Source: an uncultured delta proteobacterium
Lineage (GTDB): Bacteria > Desulfobacterota > Desulfobaccia > Desulfobaccales > 0-14-0-80-60-11
Length of the DNA: 64,000 nt
Direction of reading: 5' to 3'
Assembly: GCA_963697965.1 (NCBI GenBank)
Contig: OY969108.1
Span: 2,365,326 to 2,429,325 of the forward strand
A program made the translations under genes and the position numbers. Shown here piece after piece: positions 6,758-62,487 of the stretch. Numbering within the stretch: the first letter of the stretch is position 1; every line of letters starts with the position of its first letter. Under the pieces are notes generated by a model that saw only the letters and a program-made list of their open reading frames with translations, did no database searches and was not told where the DNA came from.

Positions 6758-7192
6758 TCAAAGGGAGACTTTATTGCGCCGCAACCAGTAAAGGGCCAGG
6801 TCTTCCACCACCCGGAAATACTCGTCGCAGTCCACCGGCTTGACCAGGTAGCTGTTCGCCCCCGATCGATAGCTCTCGAGGATGTCCGACTCTTCCTGGG
6901 AGGAGGTCAACATTACCACTGGAATCAAGCGGGTGCGTTCATGCCCCTTGAGCCTTCTTAGAACTTCCAGGCCGCTCATCTTGGGGAGCTTCAGGTCCAG
7001 GAAGATCGCCTTGGGAAACTCACGGGGCGCATCCGCAGCAAACAAGAGAAAATCGAGGGCCTCCACCCCGTCGGCAAAGACCTTCACCTTGCCGGCCAGG
7101 CCCTTCCTTTTCAAGGCCCGGAGGGTCAGTTCCGCATCGCAGGGGTTGTCTTCAATGACAACGGCCTCGAAATCCTTTGCCAGGGACGCCAA
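6758..7192 (-). CDS. Single-domain CheY-like response regulator
   Basis: 144-aa REC domain (VVIEDNPCD...IFLDLKLPKMSG...VVMLTSS...YLVKP). Confidence 0.9.
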   Translation of the reverse strand: MASLAKDFEAVVIEDNPCDAELTLRALKRKGLAGKVKVFADGVEALDFLLFAADAPREFPKAIFLDLKLPKMSGLEVLRRLKGHERTRLIPVVMLTSSQEESDILESYRSGANSYLVKPVDCDEYFRVVEDLALYWLRRNKVSL

Positions 7193-7474
7193 CCAAAACT
7201 CCTTTTCCTGATGGTAGCAAGGGGCCGGGGGATCTGGCCGCGGCCGCCACCCCGACCTGCCGGCGAAATCCGTGTGAAATTTTCACCCCAGTTATGGATT
7301 ATTATAGAAGGATTGGCGGGTAAATGCACGGGAATTCACTATAACTCGTGACCGGCAGCTATTTTCTTGATAAAATTTGAAGGGTGGCCGGGGACGCAAC
7401 GAAAAATAACTTCGAGTGCCCGGCGCTGAAAATACGCTATAATTTAGGCGTCTAGAAGATAAGCAGGATATGGC

Positions 7475-10135: not shown

Positions 10136-11213
10136 TGAATTCCGCGACAAAGAACTGGTCCAGGAAATCGTCCGCCGCATCGGCCAGTTGAGCCGCGGCC
10201 CCGCAACTATCATGGAGGTCTGCGGCACCCATACCATGGCCGCGGCCCGCTTTGGCTTGAAGTCCTTGTTGCCGGAGGGGCTGCGGCTCATCTCCGGCCC
10301 CGGCTGCCCGGTGTGCGTCACCGCCCAGGATGACCTGGACGCCTTCCTGGCCCTGGGCCGCCAAGCCAATGTGGTGCTCACCTCCTTCGGCGACATGCTC
10401 CGGGTCCCAGGCAGCCGGACCTCCCTGGAACAGCTCCGGGCCCAGGGGGCCGACGTGCGGGTGGTCTATGCCCCTCTGGACGCCGTGGACCTGGCGCGGG
10501 CTGAACCCGGAAAACAGGTGGTCTTTTTCGGGGTGGGGTTCGAAACCACCATGCCCGCGGTGGCCCTGGCCATCAGAGGGGCCGCCCAGCAGCGGCTCGA
10601 GAACTTCTCAGTCCTCTGCGTCCACAAAACCATGCCCGCCGCCCTGCGGGCCCTGCTGGCCAGCGGTGAGGTGCGGGTTTCGGGCCTCCTCTGTCCCGGG
10701 CACGTCACCACCATCATCGGCGCCGACGCCTACGCCTTTATCCCCCGGGAATTCGGCATCCCTTGTGCGGTCGCCGGTTTCGAACCCCTGGACATGCTGC
10801 TCGGCATGGAGGCGATTCTGCGCCAGGTCCAGCAAGGCCGGCCCCGGGTGGACAACGCCTATGGCCGGGCGGTCCAGACCCGGCCCAACCCCCAGGCCCA
10901 GGCCCTGCTGGCCGAGGTCTTTGCCCCCGGCGATGCCAACTGGCGCGGTCTCGGAATCATTGTCGGAAGCGGCGTGCAAATTCGCCAGCCCTACGCCCGT
11001 TTTGACGCCCGCATCAGGTTTTCCGGGGTCTGGCCGCGCCTTACCCCGCCGCCAAAATCCTCGCCTTGCCGCTGCGGCGAGGTGCTGCGAGGGGCGTTGC
11101 GTCCCCAGGAATGCCCCCTGTTCCAGCAGGCCTGCACTCCCGCCCAACCGGTTGGACCCTGCATGGTCTCCAGCGAAGGGGCCTGCGCCGCGGCCTACCG
11201 GTACGATAGATAG
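10122..11213 (+). CDS. hypD: Hydrogenase maturation Fe-S protein HypD
   Basis: 363 aa. Starts MKFIDEFRD and carries the GPGCPVCV and GFETT motifs. Overlaps hypC by 14 nt. Confidence 0.95.
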   Translation: MKFIDEFRDKELVQEIVRRIGQLSRGPATIMEVCGTHTMAAARFGLKSLLPEGLRLISGPGCPVCVTAQDDLDAFLALGRQANVVLTSFGDMLRVPGSRTSLEQLRAQGADVRVVYAPLDAVDLARAEPGKQVVFFGVGFETTMPAVALAIRGAAQQRLENFSVLCVHKTMPAALRALLASGEVRVSGLLCPGHVTTIIGADAYAFIPREFGIPCAVAGFEPLDMLLGMEAILRQVQQGRPRVDNAYGRAVQTRPNPQAQALLAEVFAPGDANWRGLGIIVGSGVQIRQPYARFDARIRFSGVWPRLTPPPKSSPCRCGEVLRGALRPQECPLFQQACTPAQPVGPCMVSSEGACAAAYRYDR

Positions 11214-11296
11214 CCATCAGCTATCAGCTTTCAGCTTTCAGCCATCAGCTAAAGGCAAAAGGCAAAAGGCAAAAAACAAAGAAGGATTTCAAAAAG
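11214..11296 (+). repeat. Mosaic simple-repeat element: (ATCAGCT)n + (AAAGGC)n + GAAGGATTTCAAAAA
   Basis: Fills the hypD-hypE spacer. An inverted copy of the same composite lies at 20621-20693 inside the ABC exporter operon. Confidence 0.8.
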
Positions 11297-11417: not shown

Positions 11418-12452
11418 ATGTCCGCAGATGCTGGAGAGACGAACCGCAAACCGCAGCAACAGATCCTTCTCAGCCACGGCGCCGGGGGCCGGGAGATGAC
11501 CATGCTCATCGAGCAGGTCTTTCTTTCCAGCTACGGGTCCAAGAATTTTACGGGGGATGACAGCGCCACCCTGCTACTCGGTTCCCACCGCCTGGCCTTC
11601 ACCACCGATTCCTTCGTCGTGGACCCCCTGTTCTTCCCGGGAGGCGACATCGGCCGCCTGGCGGTGGCCGGCACGGTGAACGACCTGCTCACCGCCGCGG
11701 CCCGGCCCCTGGCCCTGTCCGCCTCCTTCATCCTGGAAGAGGGGCTGGAAATCGACACCCTGGCGGCCATCGCCACCTCCATGCAACGGACCGCGGATGA
11801 ATGCGGGGTCACCATTGTCACCGGCGATACCAAGGTGGTCCCCAGGGGCTCGGCGGACAAGGTCTTCATCACCACCGCCGGGGTGGGCCTGGTCCTGCGC
11901 CCCGGGGTTTCCGGCGCCGCCGCGGTCCCCGGGGACAAGATCATCCTCACCGGGTCCGTGGGCGACCACGGCACCGCGGTGATGCTGGCCCGGGAAAAGC
12001 TCCTCGACGGGGAGGCCATTGCCAGCGACGCCGCCCCCCTCACCGACCTGGTGCTGAACCTCATCGAGAGCGGCTGCGCGATCCACGCCATGCGGGATCC
12101 CACCCGGGGCGGCATTGCCGGCTCTCTAAACGAGATCGCCCGCCAATCCCAGGTGTCCATGGAGGTCGAAGAAACCCTCATCCCGGTCAAGCCGGCGGTG
12201 GCCGCGGCCTGCGAGGCCCTGGGGCTCGAGGTCTACCAGGTGGCCTGCGAAGGGAAGATGCTGGTGATAGTAGCCCCTGAGGACGCCGGGCGGGCCGTGG
12301 AGATCATTCAGGGGAGCCGCTACGGCTCCGGGGCCCGTCTCATCGGTGAGGTGAGGGCAGAGTCGCCCGGACGGGTGGCCCTCCGCACCAGCATCGGCAC
12401 CGCCCGCCTTCTGGACCCCCCTTCCGGGGACCTGCTGCCCAGAATTTGTTGA
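11418..12452 (+). CDS. hypE: Hydrogenase maturation protein HypE (carbamoyl dehydratase)
   Basis: 344 aa. AIR-synthase-like fold motifs and the terminal PRIC* motif with the conserved C-terminal Cys. Confidence 0.95.
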   Translation: MSADAGETNRKPQQQILLSHGAGGREMTMLIEQVFLSSYGSKNFTGDDSATLLLGSHRLAFTTDSFVVDPLFFPGGDIGRLAVAGTVNDLLTAAARPLALSASFILEEGLEIDTLAAIATSMQRTADECGVTIVTGDTKVVPRGSADKVFITTAGVGLVLRPGVSGAAAVPGDKIILTGSVGDHGTAVMLAREKLLDGEAIASDAAPLTDLVLNLIESGCAIHAMRDPTRGGIAGSLNEIARQSQVSMEVEETLIPVKPAVAAACEALGLEVYQVACEGKMLVIVAPEDAGRAVEIIQGSRYGSGARLIGEVRAESPGRVALRTSIGTARLLDPPSGDLLPRIC

Positions 12453-12476
12453 GGAAAAAGGACCGGGCGAAGGGCT
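12419..12476 (+). repeat. Left copy of a 58-bp direct repeat (hypE 3' end plus 24 nt)
   Basis: CCCTTCCGGGGACCTGCTGCCCAGAATTTGTTGAGGAAAAAGGACCGGGCGAAGGGCT. It matches 14911-14968 at 54 of 58 positions by hand alignment. Confidence 0.9.
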
Positions 12477-12500
12477 CATACCTCTCTGGCAATATCGCTA

Positions 12501-12878
12501 TCAGGCTGGCGGGTGGGCCTTTCTTTGAAAATTGTCAATGGCCAGCGTTAAGGCCTCGGCTCCCAGATTAGAGCAGTGCATTTTATTTGCGGGTAGGCCC
12601 CCCAGGGTTTCGGCCACCAGTTTGTTGGTAATCTTCTTGGCCTCCTCCAGTTCCTTGCCTTTAGCCATTTCGCTCACCATGCTGGAAACGGCGATTGCGG
12701 CTACACAGCCAAAGGTCTGGAACTTGACGTCCTCCAGGCGGTTGTCTTTGACTTTGATATAAAACGTCATCATATCCCCACAGACGGGATTACCGACCTC
12801 ACCAATGCCGTCAGCATCTTCGATAACCCCGGCATTACGAGGATTGTTGAAATGATCCATCACAGTTTTGCTGTACAT
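12501..12878 (-). CDS. IscU/NifU N-terminal-domain Fe-S cluster scaffold protein
   Basis: 125 aa. Has NPRNAG, GNPVCGD, FGCVAAIA and HCSNLG, i.e. the three conserved Cys plus Asp. Confidence 0.9.
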   Translation of the reverse strand: MYSKTVMDHFNNPRNAGVIEDADGIGEVGNPVCGDMMTFYIKVKDNRLEDVKFQTFGCVAAIAVSSMVSEMAKGKELEEAKKITNKLVAETLGGLPANKMHCSNLGAEALTLAIDNFQRKAHPPA

Positions 12879-12888
12879 GCCAGACTCC

Positions 12889-13311
12889 TTATTTCGCAGG
12901 GCAGGATTCTGCCCCGTTCATCACATCGGCCAGGGTGATGGAATACAACTTGTCGAACAACGCCCGGCCTGCTTCCTTCCAAAGCCAACGTGTCAGGCAA
13001 GTTTGGGAGCGCTCACAAACTTTATCATTATGTGCACACTCCGCTAAACTCGTGCCTTTTTCCAATAAGGCCACGATCTCTCCCACTGTAATCTCTTCCG
13101 GGGCCAGGGCCAGGGCATGGCCACCTTTGGGGCCGCGCACACTCCGGATATAATCGGCCTTCTTCAAGGGAATGATGATCTGCTCCAGATATTTCACCGA
13201 GATTCCCTGCCGCCTGGCGACCTGAGCCAGGTGAATGGGCCCCTGTTCATAATGTTGCGCCATATCCAGCATCAGGCGGGTGCCATAGCGGCTTTTGGCG
13301 GAGAGCTTCAT
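12889..13311 (-). CDS. Rrf2-family transcriptional regulator (IscR/NsrR-like)
   Basis: 140 aa. Starts MKLSAKSRYGTR, has a winged HTH, and carries a C-terminal Cys cluster (C..C.....C) compatible with Fe-S binding. Confidence 0.85.
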   Translation of the reverse strand: MKLSAKSRYGTRLMLDMAQHYEQGPIHLAQVARRQGISVKYLEQIIIPLKKADYIRSVRGPKGGHALALAPEEITVGEIVALLEKGTSLAECAHNDKVCERSQTCLTRWLWKEAGRALFDKLYSITLADVMNGAESCPAK

Positions 13312-13313
13312 GT

Positions 13314-14504
13314 TTAGGCTCCTGCTTCTGCGGCCATTTTCTTCCGCCAGACCGGAGAGAAAGCCCGGAGGTTTTCTACCGCCTGGGGCAGGTGCTTCAG
13401 AACATGGTGCACTTCTGCTTCCTGGTTATCGCGATTCAGGGTAAAAACCAGGGAGCCCTGGGCCACTTCCGGATTGATGCCGATGGCGCCCAAAACCGGC
13501 GAGGTCTTGAGCGCCTTGGAGGCGCAAGCCGAACCCGTGTTGGCATAGATTCCCTGGCTGCTCAACTTGAAAACCAGGGCCTCGCCTTCTATACCTTCAA
13601 AGCAAAAACTGGCATGTCCCGGCAATCTCATTGCCGGATGCCCGGTATAAAAGACGTGGGGGACCTTCTCCTGGACTCCGGCGACCAAAAGATCCCTCAG
13701 CTTTGCCAGGTAGACGGCTTTCTCAGCCAACTCCGGCAAAGCTAGCTCCGCCGCTTTTCCCAGGCCCACAATGCCGGGGATATTCTCGGTACCACCCCGC
13801 CTGCCGTTTTCTTGAATGCCACCGTTGAGCTGGGGCACCAGCCGCAGTTTATTGCGAAAATACAAAGCTCCGATGCCTTTGGGCGCTCCCAGCGCCGGGC
13901 CTGAAATGGTTAACAGATCCACGCCCATCTCTTTGACATCCACCGGCATCTGGCCCACGCTAGCCACGGCATCAGTGTGAAAAGGCACTCCTGCCGCCTG
14001 GCAGACAGCCACCAACTCGGAGATATCCTGGAGGGTGCCGATCTCATTACTGCCGTGACCGATAGAGACCATTACCGTGGCTGCGGTGAGGGCCTTTTTG
14101 AGACGTTCAGGATCAACCCGGCCATATCGGTCTACGGGCAGGAAGGTTACTTCAAAATCGAAAAACTTCTCCAGGAATCTCGCCGAATTAAGCACCGAGT
14201 GGTGTTCGATGGCCGAAACGATCAGGTGTTTGCCTCGCTTCAGAAAATTGGCCAGGGACATACCTTTGATGGCCAGGTTGTTGGCTTCCGCACCCGAGGA
14301 GGTGAAGATAATCTCATCGCTTCGGGCCCCGATTAGCCGGGCCACCTTTTCACGCTGCTCTTCCATGACCTCTTTGATTTCAGATCCGAGGTCATACACG
14401 GCAGAGGGATTGCCAAAACGTTCGACAAAGAAAGGCATCATGGCTGCCAAAACTTCGGGGCGAACCGGGGTGGCCGCCGCGTGATCCATATAGGCTAGTT
14501 TCAT
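13314..14504 (-). CDS. NifS/IscS-like class V aminotransferase-fold protein with substituted PLP-lysine motif
   Basis: 396 aa. Cys-loop TGSACAS is conserved. The canonical SGHK(I/L)xGPKGIGALY reads SGPALGAPKGIGALY, so His-Lys has become Pro-Ala. DA(T/V)Q reads DAVA. Confidence 0.85.
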   Translation of the reverse strand: MKLAYMDHAAATPVRPEVLAAMMPFFVERFGNPSAVYDLGSEIKEVMEEQREKVARLIGARSDEIIFTSSGAEANNLAIKGMSLANFLKRGKHLIVSAIEHHSVLNSARFLEKFFDFEVTFLPVDRYGRVDPERLKKALTAATVMVSIGHGSNEIGTLQDISELVAVCQAAGVPFHTDAVASVGQMPVDVKEMGVDLLTISGPALGAPKGIGALYFRNKLRLVPQLNGGIQENGRRGGTENIPGIVGLGKAAELALPELAEKAVYLAKLRDLLVAGVQEKVPHVFYTGHPAMRLPGHASFCFEGIEGEALVFKLSSQGIYANTGSACASKALKTSPVLGAIGINPEVAQGSLVFTLNRDNQEAEVHHVLKHLPQAVENLRAFSPVWRKKMAAEAGA

Positions 14505-14514
14505 GGCCCTGTCC

Positions 14515-14769
14515 TCAGGATAGCTTCTTTATGTAAAGTTTATAGCAATCATCGCAGGCATCTTCACAGATACCCATGAATTCTTGCCCGTGTTTGGCAC
14601 ACCAGGCTGGGATGTCTTCCAAGGCGCCGTCATAATCGGTCAATATTTCCAGCACCTGGCCCTTCTTCAGGTCTTTCATTAATTCCATCGGCTCCAAGAG
14701 GTGCATCGGGCAAGCACGATAGACCAAATCAGCCGTGGCGTCAGCTGGGCATTGATCCAGGAATTTCAT
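14515..14769 (-). CDS. TusA/SirA-like sulfur-carrier domain protein
   Basis: 84 aa from ATG 14769 (the ORF track extends to 14859). Has a Cys-Pro motif (YRACPMH) followed by KKGQVLEILTD, which is a TusA-like layout. The C-terminus is Cys-rich. Confidence 0.6.
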   Translation of the reverse strand: MKFLDQCPADATADLVYRACPMHLLEPMELMKDLKKGQVLEILTDYDGALEDIPAWCAKHGQEFMGICEDACDDCYKLYIKKLS

Positions 14770-14802
14770 AGCCTCTCTCCAGTGTTGTATTTTTATGTCT
14801 AC

Positions 14803-14822
14803 TAAAATAGTATAGACTATTT
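14803..14822. promoter_or_regulatory. Perfect 20-bp palindrome AAAATAGT-ATAG-ACTATTTT; candidate Rrf2 operator
   Basis: Located immediately downstream of the -10 of the Fe-S module promoter. The module encodes an Rrf2 regulator. Confidence 0.5.
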
Positions 14823-14829
14823 TTATAGA

Positions 14830-14858
14830 GATTATATGCGCCAATTTAGACAAAGTCA
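14830..14858 (-). promoter_or_regulatory. Near-consensus sigma-70-type promoter TTGACT-N17-TATAAT for the Fe-S module
   Basis: On the minus strand, -35 TTGACT is at 14858-14853, the spacer is 17 nt, and -10 TATAAT is at 14835-14830. This is about 60 nt upstream of ATG 14769. Confidence 0.6.
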
Positions 14859-14910
14859 AGAGGAACGATAAAAAATTTAACAGGCGACCCGCAAGTGGCT
14901 CTTAGCCTTG

Positions 14911-14968
14911 CCCTTCCGGGGGCCTGCTGCCCAGAATTTGTTGAGGAAAGAGGACCGGGGGCAGGGCT
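14911..14968 (+). repeat. Right copy of the 58-bp direct repeat (relic hypE terminus)
   Basis: Still reads PSGGLLPRIC-stop in the corresponding frame, against PSGDLLPRIC-stop in hypE. Confidence 0.9.
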
Positions 14969-15212
14969 AAAGTCTTTCGCCTGGTGGCGACTCTCTCACC
15001 TCCTGCATTTTTCTTGGAATTTTTCTTGCAAAACTAAAATACCGCCACTATATATTGTGCAGGTTAACGGGGGGCAACGGCCAGCCGTCTTCCGGCAGGA
15101 AAGTGGCCTGTTCGCCATCTGAGGATTAGGGGATAAAGTCAGGGATATTTTTGGGGTTCGGGGGAAATCCGGTGCCCGGAATCAGTTTTTTTTTCTTTTT
15201 TTTTCCAAACTA

Positions 15213-15241
15213 TTGAAAAACCCTAGTACCCACCATATTTA
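15213..15241 (+). promoter_or_regulatory. Candidate sigma-70-type promoter TTGAAA-N17-TATTTA upstream of the cytochrome operon
   Basis: Hexamers and spacing read by eye. Preceded by a T-rich tract at 15183-15207. Confidence 0.3.
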
Positions 15242-15329
15242 TATTGAAGATGTGTAAGCCGGGTCCAAGCGGACCAGGGCTTAGTTGAAGGCATCCGACA
15301 AAACCTGAATGGTCAAGAAGGAGGAGGCT

Positions 15330-15671
15330 ATGCGAAAACCGGTTCTCTGGGCAATGGCGGGAGTGTTCCTGGGAGCAGCGGTATTGGGGGCCCCCCATGG
15401 CGCCTGGGCTCAAGACGGCAAACAGATTTATGGAGCGAAGTGCGTGGCCTGCCATGGTGAGAATGGGGACGGCAAGGGCGCCCTGTGCAAAAACTTCAAC
15501 CCGCCTCCCAGCAGTTTCACCGACCCCGCGTTCTGGCAGGGAGACGTCAATAAAAAGATTGCCGACGCCATTACTCAGGGTAAGAAACCGATGATGCCGA
15601 TTAAACCGCCCCTGACTCCCGATGAGATCAAGGCGGTTACTGATTATATGACTAAATCTTTCAAAAAATAG
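15330..15671 (+). CDS. Monohaem class I c-type cytochrome, secreted
   Basis: Signal peptide, a single CVACH haem motif and a distal Met region (PMMPI). Start set at ATG 15330, which follows AAGGAGGAGG. Confidence 0.85.
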   Translation: MRKPVLWAMAGVFLGAAVLGAPHGAWAQDGKQIYGAKCVACHGENGDGKGALCKNFNPPPSSFTDPAFWQGDVNKKIADAITQGKKPMMPIKPPLTPDEIKAVTDYMTKSFKK

Positions 15672-15693
15672 AATTGCCCATCGCTGGTTTGTT

Positions 15694-16104
15694 ATGGAGA
15701 GACGCGGATTTTTAAGGCTGTTGGCCTCCATCCTGGGATTAAGCGCCGTCGGCGCTTTTGTCTATCCCTTGTTCCGCTATCTGCTGCCCGTTGAGGCAGC
15801 GCTGGGTCCAAAAAACCTCAGCATCCCCAAGGCCGAGGTCCCGGTAAATGCCACTAAAGATCTGCTGTTAGGCGCTACCCCGATAATCGTCCTCGACATT
15901 CCTGACAAGGGCTACCTGGCCTTTTCCAGGGTCTGCACCCACCTGGGCTGCCTGGTGAAATTTGATAAAGAACGGCAGGAGTTCATCTGCCCCTGCCATG
16001 CGGGCATCTACGACCTGGACGGGAACGTGGTGTCCGGTCCCCCGCCCAAGCCTTTGCGGAAGTTTGCCGTGAAGGTGGAAGGCGATAACCTGGTAATCGG
16101 GTGA
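15694..16104 (+). CDS. Rieske [2Fe-2S] subunit of a cytochrome bc/b6f-type complex
   Basis: Tat-like N-terminus MERRGFLRL, then CTHLGC and CPCHAG boxes. Confidence 0.9.
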   Translation: MERRGFLRLLASILGLSAVGAFVYPLFRYLLPVEAALGPKNLSIPKAEVPVNATKDLLLGATPIIVLDIPDKGYLAFSRVCTHLGCLVKFDKERQEFICPCHAGIYDLDGNVVSGPPPKPLRKFAVKVEGDNLVIG

Positions 16105-16108
16105 CAAG

Positions 16109-17194
16109 ATGATGTCAAGGCTGAGTGAATGGCTGGAGATCAGGTTAGGCTTCGACGAACTGGTCCGCTCGCAGCTCACCGATTACCGGGTTCCCAAGAA
16201 TGTCAATATCTTTTACACCTTGGGCATGGTCGCCCTGGCGGGCTTTGTTTTTCAGGCCTTAACCGGCATTTTGCTGATGTTCTACTACATTCCTGATAGC
16301 AAGGACGCCTTTCAAAGCATTGAGTTTACCATGAACACCGTGCCTTACGGCTGGCTCTTTCGCCTGATGCACGTGATGGGCGCCAACCTCATGGTGGCGG
16401 TAGTCCTCCTCCATATGGGCTCCGTCTTTTTCCTGGGCTCCTATAAGAAACCCAGGGAACTCACCTGGGTGGTGGGGGCCTTGTTGTTGCTCACCGTCCT
16501 GGGCTTTACCTTGAGCGGCTATCTCCTGCCCTGGAGCCAGTTGAGTTTCTGGGCCACCACGGTGGTGACCGATATCCCCTCCGCCTTTCCGCTGGTGGGA
16601 GGGTTGATTAGCAAAATTCTCAGAGGAAGTGAAAACGTTTCGGGGGTGACCCTTAACCGCTTCTTTGCCCTGCACGTCGCCTTTTTCCCCTTCCTGTTCT
16701 CGACCCTCTTCGCCCTGCACGTCTTCCTGGTGAGGAGAATCGGCATCTCCGCGCCTCCCTCTGCCTCCCTGGCGCCGGAGGAGTGGAAGGAATTCCACCA
16801 TGAAAGCCATCCCGACGGGCCTCCCTTTTACCCCGACTATGTTTCCAAAGAAGCCTTCATGGTGATAATTTATCTGATTGTGATGTTTGCCCTAATTTCC
16901 TTGATACCGGCCTTATTCATTCCCCACGACGCCCGCATTCCCGCCGATCCCATGAATACCCCGGAACATATCAGGCCGGAATGGTATTTCCTGGCTCCCT
17001 ATGAAATGCTCAAACTCATCCCCAATAGATTTCTGGGGATCGCCTTGCAGGTGGTTCTGGTGGTGGTTTTTATCTTCTGGCCTTTCATGGATAAATCACA
17101 AAAGGCCACCATCCTCAAGAGGCCGGTTTTGCTGGCCATCTTCCTGGTAACTATCGTGGTCTGGGTAGTACTCACCATCTGGGGGTCTCGCTGA
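16109..17194 (+). CDS. Cytochrome b (fused b6-like N-terminal part plus subunit IV-like part)
   Basis: 361 aa. His pairs in helix B (MHVMG...LLHMG) and helix D (ALHVAF...ALHVFL, 14 residues between them), plus the PEWYFL motif. No Cys at the position of the b6 haem-ci ligand (FYTLG). Confidence 0.9.
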   Translation: MMSRLSEWLEIRLGFDELVRSQLTDYRVPKNVNIFYTLGMVALAGFVFQALTGILLMFYYIPDSKDAFQSIEFTMNTVPYGWLFRLMHVMGANLMVAVVLLHMGSVFFLGSYKKPRELTWVVGALLLLTVLGFTLSGYLLPWSQLSFWATTVVTDIPSAFPLVGGLISKILRGSENVSGVTLNRFFALHVAFFPFLFSTLFALHVFLVRRIGISAPPSASLAPEEWKEFHHESHPDGPPFYPDYVSKEAFMVIIYLIVMFALISLIPALFIPHDARIPADPMNTPEHIRPEWYFLAPYEMLKLIPNRFLGIALQVVLVVVFIFWPFMDKSQKATILKRPVLLAIFLVTIVVWVVLTIWGSR

Positions 17195-18054
17195 TGCGCT
17201 CGCTGATGCGCTCCCTGCTCACCGTGATCTGCCTCCTTTGCCTGGCTTCGGTCTCCGAAGCGGCCTGGACCGAGTTGTTGCAGAAAGAGTTCCCCAAGAC
17301 TCCGTGGGACCAGAGACCCGCGGTTGAGCGGACCGTTTGTATCGACTGCCACGACTCCGACTTGATGAGGCCCGAATATAAGGCAATTCCGGCGGAGTGG
17401 CGCAAAAGCGTGCATTACCAGAACGGGGTTTCCTGCCAGGACTGCCACGGCGGCGACCCCAAGGACGCCGCCAGGTCCATGACGCCGCAGAGCGGGTTCG
17501 TGGGGGCGCCGAAACCCAAAGAGGTTCCGGGATTCTGCGGGAAATGCCATTTGGGCATCAAGGAAAACTACCTGGAAGGTGGCCATGGCAAGGCCCTGAT
17601 GACTACCGGCACGGGGCCCAATTGTGTCCTCTGCCACCATTCCCATGATATCCAGAAGGCCAGCATAGGGATTATCAACCCCAATTTATGTGGAATCTGC
17701 CACAGTTATGACCGCGCCCGGGAGATGAAGGAGGCCCTGCTGCTGACCGAGGTGAAGATCAATGAGATCAATAGCAATCTACAGACCTTGAAGGCCGGAT
17801 TGATAGACACCCGAGATGAGGATGAGACCCTTTTCCGGACCCAGGCGGAATATAGGACCTTGTTTCATAGTGTGGATGTGAATCTGGTGAAGGCCAAAAC
17901 CGCGGAGTTCGCCAAGAAGCTGGCCGCTCTTAATCAACAGGTTAATAAAGGTTTCAAGGAGTTGAAATTCCGCCAGAACTTCGCCACCCTGATCTTGCTG
18001 ATTTTTGTCGGCCTGGGGATCACGATCTTCTTGTTGGGACGGCGAAAGGAATAA
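17194..18054 (+). CDS. Membrane-anchored pentahaem c-type cytochrome
   Basis: Five CxxCH motifs (CIDCH, CQDCH, CGKCH, CVLCH, CGICH), an N-terminal signal and a C-terminal TM helix. The start overlaps the cytochrome b stop (TGATG). Confidence 0.85.
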   Translation: MRSLMRSLLTVICLLCLASVSEAAWTELLQKEFPKTPWDQRPAVERTVCIDCHDSDLMRPEYKAIPAEWRKSVHYQNGVSCQDCHGGDPKDAARSMTPQSGFVGAPKPKEVPGFCGKCHLGIKENYLEGGHGKALMTTGTGPNCVLCHHSHDIQKASIGIINPNLCGICHSYDRAREMKEALLLTEVKINEINSNLQTLKAGLIDTRDEDETLFRTQAEYRTLFHSVDVNLVKAKTAEFAKKLAALNQQVNKGFKELKFRQNFATLILLIFVGLGITIFLLGRRKE

Positions 18055-18180
18055 CCTGATCTTAGTTGGCCGGCGTCATCCCCGTTTGCCTTGGGCGCCT
18101 TGGGCTTCCGGGGCGAAATCGATCTTCATGATGGCATTCTTCTTGACGATACCCCACCAGCATAATCACCCCTGCCGGTC

Positions 18181-27111: not shown

Positions 27112-27265
27112 CCTTGAACTTGAGACCTAGGCGAAAGTCCCCATTTCTGTCATTCTGAGGGAGCGAAGCGACCGAAGAATCTCATAATTACTAAATAAGA
27201 TACGCGATCCTTCGCTTCGCTCAGGATGACAAAGTTGGTTTTCGCATAGGTCTTAACCTTGAACT
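27112..27265. mobile_element. Composite palindromic (MITE-like) element flanked by direct CCTTGAACTT
   Basis: Outer arms are GAGACCTAGGCGAAA (27122-27136) and TTTCGCATAGGTCTT (27240-27254). Inner arms are GTCATTCTGAGGGAGCGAAGCGACCGAAGAATC and GATCCTTCGCTTCGCTCAGGATGAC. CCTTGAACTT is present on both flanks (27112-27121 and 27256-27265). Confidence 0.55.
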
Positions 27266-27293
27266 TTGAACTTTGAACTTTGAACTTTGAACT
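27261..27293 (+). repeat. Tandem heptamer array (GAACTTT)x4.7
   Basis: Read directly. An inverted array (AGTTCAA)n lies at 39894-39928. Confidence 0.95.
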
Positions 27294-35782: not shown

Positions 35783-35811
35783 ATTTCTTTTCTAATCCCT
35801 AATCCCTAACC
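35783..35811 (+). repeat. Tandem heptamer array (CCCTAAY)x4
   Basis: CTAATCCCTAATCCCTAACCCCTAATCCC read directly. It overlaps the 3' end of the aminotransferase gene. Confidence 0.9.
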
Positions 35812-37008
35812 CCTAATCCCTTGCTTGTCTCCCGCCCGCTCCCGAGCCCGGGCGAAGCCGGGGGCGGCTTTTTCGATCACCGCTTCCGGCGCGCAAAAGG
35901 CCAGGCGGAAATGGCCCGGCCGCCCGAAGCCCCGGCCCGGCACCGCCAGGATGTTCTCCTCCCTGAGGAGGGCCACGAAGGCCAGATCGTCGCCCCCCGG
36001 GGCCTTGGGGAAGAGATAGAAGGCCCCTTTGGGTTTGAAAAATTCATAACCGGCCTGCTCCAGCACCTGGCAAAAGATCTCCCGGCGCCGGGCATAAGGC
36101 GCCATATCTACCTGGACTTCCGTCAGGGGGGCCACCACTCGCTGCATAAAAGCCGGGGCGTTCACGAACCCCAGGATACGGTTGGCCAGCGCCAGGCCAC
36201 CCGCCAGTTCCAGGCGCCCCGGGGTCCGGGGGCTTACCGCCGCATAGCCCAGACGCTCCCCGGCGATGGAAAGATCCTTGGAAAAAGAATTCGCCAGCAA
36301 GGTGTCGGGGTAGGCCGCGAAGACGCTGGGGACCTCCAGTCCATCATAGACGATGCGGCGGTAAGGCTCATCCGCCACCAGATAGACCGGCCGGCCGTGG
36401 GCTGCGGCGTGCCGCCCCAGCAGTTGGCCCAGTTCCAGCAGGGTCGCGGCCTCATAGACCTGGCCGGTGGGATTGTTGGGGGAATTGATCAGCACGGCCC
36501 GGGTTTTGGGGCTCAAGACCGCGGCCAGGCGCTTCAGGTCCAGTTGGAAGTTGGCGTCGGTTTCCGCCACCCGCACCACGCCGCCGTGGTTGTCGGCGTA
36601 AGCCAGATATTCCACGAAATAGGGGGCAAAAACGATCACCTCATCGCCGGGGTCCAGGATGGTCTTGAGGATGACGTTGAGGGCTCCGGCGGCGCCGCAG
36701 GTGAGGATCAGGTCGTCGGCCCGGAAGTCGAGGCGATGGACCCTGCCCAGGTGGGCGGCCAGGGCCTGGCGGGTCTCCGGCAACCCGGCGTTGGGCATAT
36801 AGCCGTGGAGACCGGGGCGGGGGTCTTGCGCCGCGGCCGCCAGTTCCTCTTTGAACCGGCGGGGCGGCTCCAGGTCGGGATTGCCCAGGGTGAAATCGAA
36901 GACCTGATCCGCCCCCAGCCGCGCCTTAAGCTCACGGCCCTCTTCGAACATCCTCCGGATCCAGGAGGAGCTCTCCATCGCCGACTTGATGCGAAAGGCA
37001 ATGCTCAT
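35806..37008 (-). CDS. PLP-dependent class I/II aminotransferase (aspartate/alanine aminotransferase-like)
   Basis: 400 aa from ATG 37008. NSPNNPTG and SFSKDLSIAGERLGY (PLP Lys) motifs. The 27-codon upstream extension in the ORF track is encoded by a (GTTTTCT)n repeat and is unlikely to be real. Confidence 0.85.
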   Translation of the reverse strand: MSIAFRIKSAMESSSWIRRMFEEGRELKARLGADQVFDFTLGNPDLEPPRRFKEELAAAAQDPRPGLHGYMPNAGLPETRQALAAHLGRVHRLDFRADDLILTCGAAGALNVILKTILDPGDEVIVFAPYFVEYLAYADNHGGVVRVAETDANFQLDLKRLAAVLSPKTRAVLINSPNNPTGQVYEAATLLELGQLLGRHAAAHGRPVYLVADEPYRRIVYDGLEVPSVFAAYPDTLLANSFSKDLSIAGERLGYAAVSPRTPGRLELAGGLALANRILGFVNAPAFMQRVVAPLTEVQVDMAPYARRREIFCQVLEQAGYEFFKPKGAFYLFPKAPGGDDLAFVALLREENILAVPGRGFGRPGHFRLAFCAPEAVIEKAAPGFARARERAGDKQGIRG

Positions 37009-37017
37009 AAAAGACCC

Positions 37018-37049
37018 GTTTTCTGTTTTCTGTTTTCTGTTTTCTGTTC
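37018..37049 (+). repeat. Tandem heptamer array (GTTTTCT)x4.5
   Basis: Read directly. Followed by CTCTGCGCTCTCTGCGCTTCTGCGG. Confidence 0.95.
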
Positions 37050-37121
37050 TTCTCTGCGCTCTCTGCGCTTCTGCGGTGCATTGTGCCACCGCCGAGACGC
37101 AGAGGCAGCAGAGAAACTCTC

Positions 37122-39893: not shown

Positions 39894-39928
39894 AGTTCAA
39901 AGTTCAAAGTTCAAAGTTCAAAGTTCAG
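39894..39928 (+). repeat. Tandem heptamer array (AGTTCAA)x5
   Basis: Read directly. It is the reverse complement of the unit at 27261-27293. Confidence 0.95.
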
Positions 39929-39957: not shown

Positions 39958-41180
39958 ATAAGGAAAAAAAGAAAAAAAAAAAAAAAAAGAAAAAAAAAGA
40001 AAGAAAGGTAAAAAAGAAAAAGCAGAAGAAAGGAGAATAAAAAAGAATATGAGAAGGATAAAAACTGAGAAAACATATAGAAAAGGAAAAAAAAAAGTAA
40101 TAAAAAAAATAAAAAAAAAAAATAAAAAATAAAAAGAAAGGAGAAAAGGAAAAGAAGAAGAAAGAAAAAGAAAAAGAGGATTCAAGGAATTCAAGGTTAG
40201 ACCACAGGTGCGCCAGTCATTGCAGGGAGGAAAGTGACGACATGGAAAAGAGTCAAGGCAGAGATCTCTGCGAAAATCCCAATTTGGAAAGCTTGTCATT
40301 CTGAAGGGGAGCGAAGCGACCGAACAGAAGCTCTTATAAAGGCCAGATACATGACGGAAAAGTTGGCGAGGGGTGGGTGTTCTATGGAAAAATTTTCTTC
40401 TCTATCTGAGGCGGCGAAGACAATAACTGAAAATTAGATAAAGGGCGGGAAAAAAGCGAAAGCGCATAGCCCGAAAATCATAAAAGGAAGATCATAATAT
40501 CTCTCAGAAAAGATAAAAAGGAAAGAAATAAGGCAAGGAAATTGACTGCTGAGGAATAAGCAGAAAAAAAAAGAGAAGCGAAAGAGCAAGGTTCAAGGTT
40601 CAAGAATGAATTAGACAGGTGACGCCGTAAGCATTGCGGGAAAGGGTGACGGAGTCAAGGCAGAGATCGATCTGCCGAAAATCCCCATTTTTGTCATTAC
40701 TGAGGAACATAGCTTCAATATGACAAGTTGGCGATGGGGTGGGTGTAGGGCGGGAAAGCGAAGCGCAAAGATAAAAGAAAAAGGAAAGAAAAAGGATAAA
40801 TGTGAGTTAGAGAGGAGAAAGCTATACGCTGAAGAGAAAAAGGTAAGCAATACTGGGACAAAGTGATAACTGACCACGCAAAAATAACAAGGAAAAAAAA
40901 AAGAAAAGGGGAAAAAGAAAGAAGACTAAGCATTATATAAAGAAGAAAAGAGCTCATACCGAGAAAAAGAAGAAGCAAAAATAGAAAAAAACGAGAGGAT
41001 GAATAAAAAGAAGAAGATAAAAGAGAAAAAAAGAGATAAGAAAATAAAAGAAAAAATGAGAAGATAAGAAGAAGAAGAGGGAAAAAAAAGCGAAGCGAAA
41101 GAAACCGCAGAATCTTATAAAAACTGCAAAGTTGAGCGAGGGGAAGGTGGTGTAGGGCGAGGAAAGAAAAATTAATACGC
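39958..41180 (+). repeat. About 1.2-kb strand-asymmetric polypurine (A-rich) non-coding tract with three embedded repeat modules
   Basis: I count 16 pyrimidines in 39961-40180 and 27 in 40881-41100 (220 nt each). It contains an A17 run at 39972-39988. Embedded related modules lie at about 40181-40385, 40587-40765 and 41090-41165. ORFs here translate to poly-K or poly-F/L/S. Confidence 0.9.
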
Positions 41181-59147: not shown

Positions 59148-59266
59148 GGGAATTATATATTTGAATCCCCCAATTTTCTTTTGTAGGGGCGGGGTTTCCC
59201 CGCCCAGGGCGGCGAGACGCCGCCCCTACGGCCGTGATGGAATCGGGAGTCGAGTATATAATTCCC
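59148..59266. mobile_element. MITE-like 119-bp element with perfect 12-bp terminal inverted repeats GGGAATTATATA / TATATAATTCCC
   Basis: TIRs lie at 59148-59159 and 59255-59266. The interior carries GTAGGGGCGGGGTTTCCCCGCCC..GCCGCCCCTAC hairpins. The left half is repeated at 27962-28008. Confidence 0.65.
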
Positions 59267-62412: not shown

Positions 62413-62487
62413 GGTTTCGAGTTTTAGGTTTTAGGTTTTTGTTTTTTGTTTTGCCTTTTTACTTTTTACTTTTTACTTTTTACTTTC
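62413..62487 (+). repeat. Compound tandem-repeat block (GTTTTAG)2 (GTTTTTT)2 (ACTTTTT)4
   Basis: Read directly. Preceded by REP hairpin GTAGGAGCGACCCGCTGGGTCGCCC (62388-62412). Followed by a GAAAACYG-type array at 62531-62562. Confidence 0.9.

Follow-up and report, generated by a model that had tools for sequence, protein, structure and literature searches.

Dispersed segmental duplications attributed to microhomology-mediated break-induced replication or fork stalling and template switching (MMBIR/FoSTeS), in which a resident segment is copied to a non-homologous site, have been described (PMC2621351), including in E. coli (PMC3161906). Integrative elements (ICEberg 2.0, PMC6323972) provide a second comparison, and among them cis-mobilizable elements (CIMEs) by definition keep attL and attR and are without integration and transfer genes (PMC6323972). 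As for cargo, the nearest described counterpart is the IscS-IscU complex of Archaeoglobus fulgidus (PDB 4eb5, 4r5f), whose IscS has a lysine replaced by aspartate and is without desulfurase activity (PMC7585200). Here, a 64,000-nt stretch of an uncultured delta proteobacterium of the Desulfobaccales (GCA_963697965.1, contig OY969108.1, positions 2,365,326–2,429,325; hereafter the window) was analyzed, in which a 2.4-kb cassette with the iron-sulfur (Fe-S) operon tusA-nifS-rrf2-iscU lies just downstream of the hydrogenase maturation gene hypE, between two copies of a 58-nt direct repeat. The cassette was inserted once, in the ancestor of one clade, with a 58-bp target duplication. The initial annotation could not assign it to a described class of elements; as a copy of a resident operon that was inserted once, it appears better filed as a dispersed segmental duplication with target duplication, a known kind of event. 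The features of the locus are listed below, and comparison loci from other genomes and contigs carry L numbers.

11418–12452, plus strand: hypE (NCBIfam hypE equivalog, 401 bits, cutoff 252; Pfam AIRS/AIRS_C)
12419–12476, plus strand: left 58-mer, target duplication copy, comprising the hypE 3' end and 24 nt downstream
12477–14895, minus strand: donor-derived segment with the complete tusA-nifS-rrf2-iscU operon (94.7–95% identity over 2419 nt to L122 and L132–L137)
12501–12878, minus strand: iscU/NifU-type Fe-S scaffold (Pfam NifU_N 8.7e-48; NCBIfam NifU_clost 190.9 bits, cutoff 187.9)
12889–13311, minus strand: rrf2, Rrf2-family regulator, IscR-like (Pfam/NCBIfam; below the IscR cutoff)
13314–14504, minus strand: NifS/IscS-like class-V aminotransferase (Pfam/NCBIfam; below the FeS_nifS cutoff)
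14515–14769, minus strand: TusA-like sulfur carrier (Pfam TusA 8.8e-15)
14795–14811 and 14816–14832, minus strand: palindromic operator with 17-nt arms (sequence palindrome)
14859–14854 (-35) and 14836–14831 (-10), minus strand: operon promoter TTGACT-17-TATAAT (11/12 matches)
14896–14910, plus strand: putative 15-nt junction filler TGGCTCTTAGCCTTG (alignment of occupied, native, and empty loci)
14911–14968, plus strand: right 58-mer, target duplication copy, a non-coding relic of the hypE end
14969–18097, plus strand: original downstream neighbor of hypE, intergenic DNA followed by cytochrome c, Rieske, cytochrome b, and multihaem cytochrome genes (Pfam)

The two 58-mers are identical at 54 of 58 positions without a gap, as had been counted by hand in the initial annotation, and the pair is unique in the window, where the first 39 nt occur at two sites only when up to three mismatches are allowed (none expected from 100 shuffles). 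The first 34 nt of the left copy are the last 10 codons and stop of hypE, which ends in PSGDLLPRIC-stop. The right copy encodes the relic PSGGLLPRIC-stop, as first read, in a frame with an in-frame stop three codons upstream. A remnant of a tandem hypE duplication, previously named as an alternative source of the right copy, was rejected because no additional hypE-like sequence was found upstream of 14911, where the local alignment score to hypE equals the shuffle mean.

Relatives were collected by a HypE scan with one genome per species, which gave 14 close loci in metagenome-assembled genomes of Desulfobaccales. Six related loci (L004, L006, L007, L008, L014, and L037) are empty sites, where hypE and a single 58-mer are followed by the sequence that stands after 14968 in the window (intergenic DNA, cytochrome c, Rieske, cytochrome b, and multihaem cytochrome), which is the arrangement predicted for an insertion of the cassette (~2.43 kb) at the hypE 3' end with a long target duplication. 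The left 58-mer of the window equals this single copy except for a synonymous AGG-to-AGA change that is also present in the right copy. In the more distant L009 and L010, hypE is followed by cytochrome c and the cassette is absent. Among the HypE-scan loci, only L001 and L002 are occupied like the window, with identical junctions, and in neighbor-joining trees of hypE, hypD, and cytochrome b (cytb) DNA these three form one clade with all empty sites outside. Since repeated deletion would be less parsimonious, this distribution reflects one insertion with a 58-bp target duplication in the clade ancestor, which preserved the essential C-terminus of hypE and reduced the right copy to a relic. The exact NifS protein of the window was found on nine contigs, and the gene order is the same in the six that were displayed, which come from six different samples or assemblies and include one of 471 kb; the earlier concern that the repeat might be an assembly artefact was thus allayed.

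The four-gene module is widespread in Desulfobaccales, with 72–90% protein identity and in several contexts. The NifS proteins P0002 and P0003 (96% identical) belong to another locus, in which a GltD-like Fer4_20/Pyr_redox_2 oxidoreductase is followed by tusA-nifS-rrf2-iscU, and a widespread version of this native locus (L132–L137 and L139) was found via the oxidoreductase. The operon follows the oxidoreductase in L122, L123, and L132–L137. The native-locus copies share 94.7–95.0% DNA identity with window positions 14895–12477 over 2419 nt, and the homology is limited exactly by the first base after the left 58-mer (12477) and by a point 15 nt before the right 58-mer (14895), so the donor-derived segment includes ~36 nt ahead of the -35 box and extends 24 nt beyond the iscU stop. 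Neither the 58-mer nor any flanking repeat is present at the native-locus copies. Because the module of L119, which is 84% identical, shows the same oxidoreductase-operon order, the oxidoreductase locus is considered the ancestral home. In a bootstrapped neighbor-joining tree of the operon (2033 gap-free columns), the hypE-site copies form one monophyletic group (82%), whose sister is the native pair L122 and L123 (88%), with L119 outside. The divergence between hypE-site and native copies (4.4–5.4%) equals that within the hypE-site copies (4.1–5.4%), which suggests that the copy was made near the start of the diversification of the clade. A donor copy elsewhere in the lineage with similar divergence is what a dispersed segmental duplication entails. 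Judged from these alignments, the cassette is evidently a copy of the operon of the lineage itself, or of that of a near-identical relative, and not foreign DNA. A mobile cassette that would recur elsewhere between repeats, as the initial annotation had envisaged, was rejected, because long flanking repeats are lacking at the eight other contexts of the module, which show only repeats at chance level.

Two contigs show unusual states of the native locus. L138 (ENA ERZ27250117, k141_543650) links the end of the hypE-site cassette to the 58-mer, the cytochrome cluster, the oxidoreductase, and another operon copy on the plus strand. It is 100% window-like up to the middle of cytb and 100% L132-like beyond, with an abrupt switch. 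This mosaic led to the rejection of L138 as proof of both operon copies in one genome, and the contig is probably a chimeric assembly, or else a very recent recombinant. In L130 (4306–4496), the oxidoreductase protein is 95% identical to that of the native locus and the operon is gone, the upstream region being kept to the -10 box and followed by unrelated DNA; the next 47–55 nt match a non-coding segment of L134 (3163–3217) located ~580 nt upstream of cytochrome c. Since L130 retains only a promoter remnant, the native copy can evidently be lost by imprecise deletion. Neither L130, which is not assignable to the occupied clade, nor L131 and L140, which are too distant, was accepted as the native locus of that clade.

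Between the repeats lies one minus-strand module of TusA-like, NifS-like, Rrf2, and IscU-like genes identified by Pfam/NCBIfam, as first described. The four genes fill the insert, and the earlier statement that it is free of integrase and transposase genes agrees with the Pfam results, which revealed no such families, neither inside the insert nor in genes called up to 10 kb to its left and right. The translated iscU shows the Cys/Asp/His-Cys ligand motifs. The near-consensus promoter and the palindromic operator, both noticed at the outset, were located, and both are kept at the other locus of the operon; the -35 box is unchanged in 10 contexts. The tRNA and Rfam scans of the window gave no hits. 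The G+C content of the insert is 53.2%, against an unusually high 64–68% in the hyp genes (80–86% at third codon positions), so the contrast drawn in the initial annotation was real. Its count of 26/60 in 12721–12780 was right, and that for 12001–12060 is 43/60, not 46/60. The contrast failed as a mark of the cassette, because the cytochrome genes to the right are equally low (54–57%), so that no step in G+C marks the right repeat; the range across the window is 51 to 70%. With 53.0% at the native locus, the low G+C is a property of the operon itself, and a foreign origin based on G+C was rejected. From its gene content, the cassette is predicted to be an ordinary, self-regulated Fe-S assembly operon of the minimal iron-sulfur cluster (ISC)/minimal iron-sulfur (MIS) type beside hydrogenase maturation genes.

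The insertion left 15 nt at one junction, the right one. The sequence TGGCTCTTAGCCTTG occurs in neither the donor locus nor the target and only in hypE-site copies, and from the alignments it is best read as junction filler. No inverted repeats were found between the two ends of the insert, and the end motifs occur nowhere else in the analyzed sequences. L001 alone carries a further, independent insertion, which spans ~945 nt and lies ~80 nt beyond the right 58-mer. Its one gene encodes a 246-aa membrane c-type cytochrome, of which no other copies exist among the loci compared. It is flanked by a direct target duplication of ~175 nt (L001 13617–13790 and 14737–14907, 81–92% identical), which corresponds to window ~15045–15225. 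Duplication lengths of 58 and ~175 nt argue against a fixed-cut, site-specific enzyme. Long flanking duplications were rejected as a general feature of insertions and deletions at this locus, being absent from the surroundings of the cytochrome cluster in L134 and of the extra genes that L006, L009, and L037 carry. The two 58-mers have evidently exchanged sequence by gene conversion since the insertion, as those of L001 are identical to each other (58/58) although at least six differences set both apart from every other genome, and AGA stands in both 58-mers of the window in place of the AGG of the empty sites.

At several empty sites, the insertion point falls in the loop of a small hairpin (CCGGGCGAAAG...CTTTCGCCTGG). 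As a demonstrated fragile site it was downgraded to a lead, since it is marginal against shuffles and not conserved at all empty sites. In L003 and L005 (~11050–11075), the cytochrome c-Rieske-cytb-multihaem cluster after hypE (window 14963–18160) is missing, and the 58-mer up to GGGCGAA is fused to window 18161 onwards (ABC-2 permease); this deletion starts within a few nucleotides of the hairpin and insertion point. In L132-type genomes, the cytochrome cluster (94–96% identical to that of the empty-site group) adjoins the oxidoreductase and the Fe-S operon. Because it is missing in L003 and L005 and lies beside the native Fe-S operon in L132-type genomes, the cytochrome cluster itself may have been relocated.

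The full account, an ancestral, one-time, and recombinase-independent insertion of the 2.4-kb operon of the lineage itself after hypE, is considered moderately probable. In this account, the shared ancestor of the window, L001, and L002 gained a copy of tusA-nifS-rrf2-iscU directly behind hypE, with the home locus downstream of the GltD-like oxidoreductase, in the same genome or in a near-identical relative, as the source of the copy. No site-specific recombinase would be involved, since the variable duplication length and the 15-nt filler point to break repair or template switching instead. One option is a replication template switch of the MMBIR/FoSTeS kind that returned to the original template 58 nt behind the point where it had left; another is the capture of a fragment at a double-strand break with staggered ends, followed by fill-in of the overhangs. 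With known dispersed segmental duplications, the cassette shares the copying of a resident segment to a non-homologous site, a non-recurrent junction, putative filler, a short target duplication, the absence of recombinase genes, and a varying duplication length (58 and ~175 bp). It is unlike them in that the left junction is without microhomology, the copied segment is exactly one operon, and one cassette end matches breakpoints in other contexts.

Several observations weigh against this account. No microhomology was found at the left junction. The copied segment runs neatly from promoter to stop, and random breaks would not be expected to give such ends unless their products had been trimmed by selection. 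L138, the one contig in which both operon copies are joined, is a probable chimera, and the empty-site hairpin is weak (dG -9.5 to -14 kcal/mol; z -0.5 to -2.6 against shuffles). In addition, the iscU-distal end (…GAGAGGTATG) meets four unrelated sequences in the window (12477), L132-type genomes (L132 8403), L122 (5275), and L119 (~4684), and in L122 the join, at which 3 nt of microhomology occur, is to an inverted segment of the DNA that precedes the oxidoreductase. The iscU-distal end thus looks like a recurrent breakpoint, and since such a shared boundary is not predicted by random breakage, it is the main ground for leaving some probability to an element-like or site-preferring mechanism.

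Two rivals fare equally, and both are unlikely. According to the first, in line with one of the two signatures originally proposed, the 58-mers are an attL/attR pair of a CIME-like element without a recombinase, which a tyrosine or serine integrase encoded elsewhere would have integrated at an attB overlapping the hypE 3' end. Direct repeats that derive from a gene 3' end and leave the target gene intact are typical of integrative elements, attB-like empty sites (n=6) exist in relatives, the definition of CIMEs fits a cassette without an integration gene (PMC6323972), and the recurrent iscU-distal boundary would suit a unit with defined ends. However, the donor copies have no att core and no 58-mer-like sequence, the repeat being merely local target, and no cognate integrative and conjugative or integrative and mobilizable element was found, nor an integrase gene, whether inside the insert or in genes called up to 10 kb away on either side. 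The phylogeny shows a single event, one junction carries a 15-nt filler, the end motifs are not repeated in the analyzed sequences, and the ~175-bp duplication of the neighboring L001 insertion indicates that the length is not fixed. The cargo is a housekeeping operon of the host, unlike that of integrative elements, and the attL/attR interpretation was not sustained, nor was an undescribed class of elements. The cassette likewise lacks the terminal inverted repeats, transposase, and constant duplication length (58 bp against ~175 bp) of transposons and insertion sequences, and its four genes with their own 11/12 promoter and no integrase nearby do not correspond to an integron cassette, which would be a single ORF lacking a promoter, bearing attC and placed beside an integron integrase.

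The second of these rivals, Campbell-type integration, supposes that a circle with the operon and a 58-bp hypE-end segment recombined homologously with hypE. A single crossover of such a circle would yield exactly the observed topology, and the gene conversion in L001 demonstrates that the 58-mers recombine. On the other hand, no source with the operon beside a hypE end is known and the native loci have no 58-mer, 58 bp is short for a RecA-dependent crossover, and the filler is left unexplained. Slightly less likely still is a recombinase-less operon unit with a defined end at 12477 that is moved by a trans-acting enzyme of this clade making long, variable staggered cuts, which would account for duplications of both 58 and ~175 bp; if true, the movement of promoter-to-stop operon units by such an enzyme would be a new mode of operon shuffling.

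It is very improbable that the occupied state is ancestral and that the empty sites are products of recurrent deletion between the 58-bp repeats. Direct repeats can drive precise deletion, and the 58-mers demonstrably interact; many independent losses would be required, though, because the empty sites all lie outside the clade and include successive outgroups (L003–L008, L014, and L009/L010), and the ancestral home of the operon is the oxidoreductase locus. An assembly artefact or strain chimera, conceivable in metagenome assemblies that include so evident a mosaic as L138, can practically be dismissed, as L001 and L002 show the same structure with repeats that have diverged independently, and the six displayed contigs all agree.

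With the insertion of a resident operon favored as the origin of the cassette, its NifS-like protein deserves separate comparison. At residues ~201–210 it reads SGPALGAPKG, compared with (S/T)AHKMYGPKG in solved homologues, so that alanine replaces the lysine that forms the Schiff base with pyridoxal phosphate (PLP). In a motif search of the 120 best database homologues, this Lys-to-Ala change was found in 31/31 scorable sequences, and the persulfide cysteine loop SACAS is kept in 120/120. The protein therefore lacks the Schiff-base lysine of PLP-dependent desulfurases, and its partner has the features of an IscU/NifU scaffold. IscS of A. fulgidus is among the best solved matches (E = 6e-106). 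The pair resembles the A. fulgidus IscS-IscU complex in combining an IscS-like protein without the catalytic PLP lysine with an IscU scaffold; it appears to differ in that the replacement is alanine and the bacterial operon adds a TusA-like carrier and an Rrf2 regulator. In the more distant L046 (1316–4897), whose NifS is 64% identical, tusA-nifS-iscU is preceded on the same strand, at a distance of ~660 nt, by a hypD homologue, and rrf2 is absent. Hyp genes and this Fe-S module are thus neighbors in a second, independent case, hinting at a functional link.

Other repeats were also observed in the window. A dispersed palindromic repeat (…GTCATTCTGAGGGAGCGAAGCGACCGAAGAATC…), resembling miniature inverted-repeat transposable elements (MITEs) or repetitive extragenic palindromes (REPs), occurs in several intergenic regions of the window and of related loci. 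A non-coding, extremely purine-rich, low-complexity region of ~1.2 kb at 39960–41150 has a G+C content of 37.5%, an AT skew of +0.53, and a GC skew of +0.39, and contains degenerate A/G-rich tandem repeats and embedded copies of the palindromic repeat. Short heptanucleotide tandem arrays of 4–6 copies each (AGCTATC, AACTTTG, CTAATCC, GTTTTCT, AGTTCAA, and CTTTTTA) are also present, and the one between hypD and hypE was confirmed to be intergenic. Their positions are as follows.

27119–27253, 40290–40330, and 59176–59229 of the window: copies of the MITE/REP-like repeat
6787–6920, 7215–7264, and 12033–12166 of L122: copies of the MITE/REP-like repeat
11212–11251 (between hypD and hypE), 27255–27293, 35792–35821, 37018–37053, 39894–39927, and 62455–62486 of the window: heptanucleotide arrays

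The locus offers a clean natural example, from an uncultured anaerobe, of a complete, self-regulated operon that was copied to another place in the chromosome with no mobile-element machinery. The analysis recovered its donor locus, the target in both the empty and the occupied state, the junction filler, and the later gene conversion between the duplicated ends. A repeat-flanked, low-G+C cassette at a gene end can mimic an integrative island and yet be native, which calls for caution in island prediction. For the organism itself, the presence of an Fe-S operon beside hypFCDE may matter physiologically for hydrogenase maturation.

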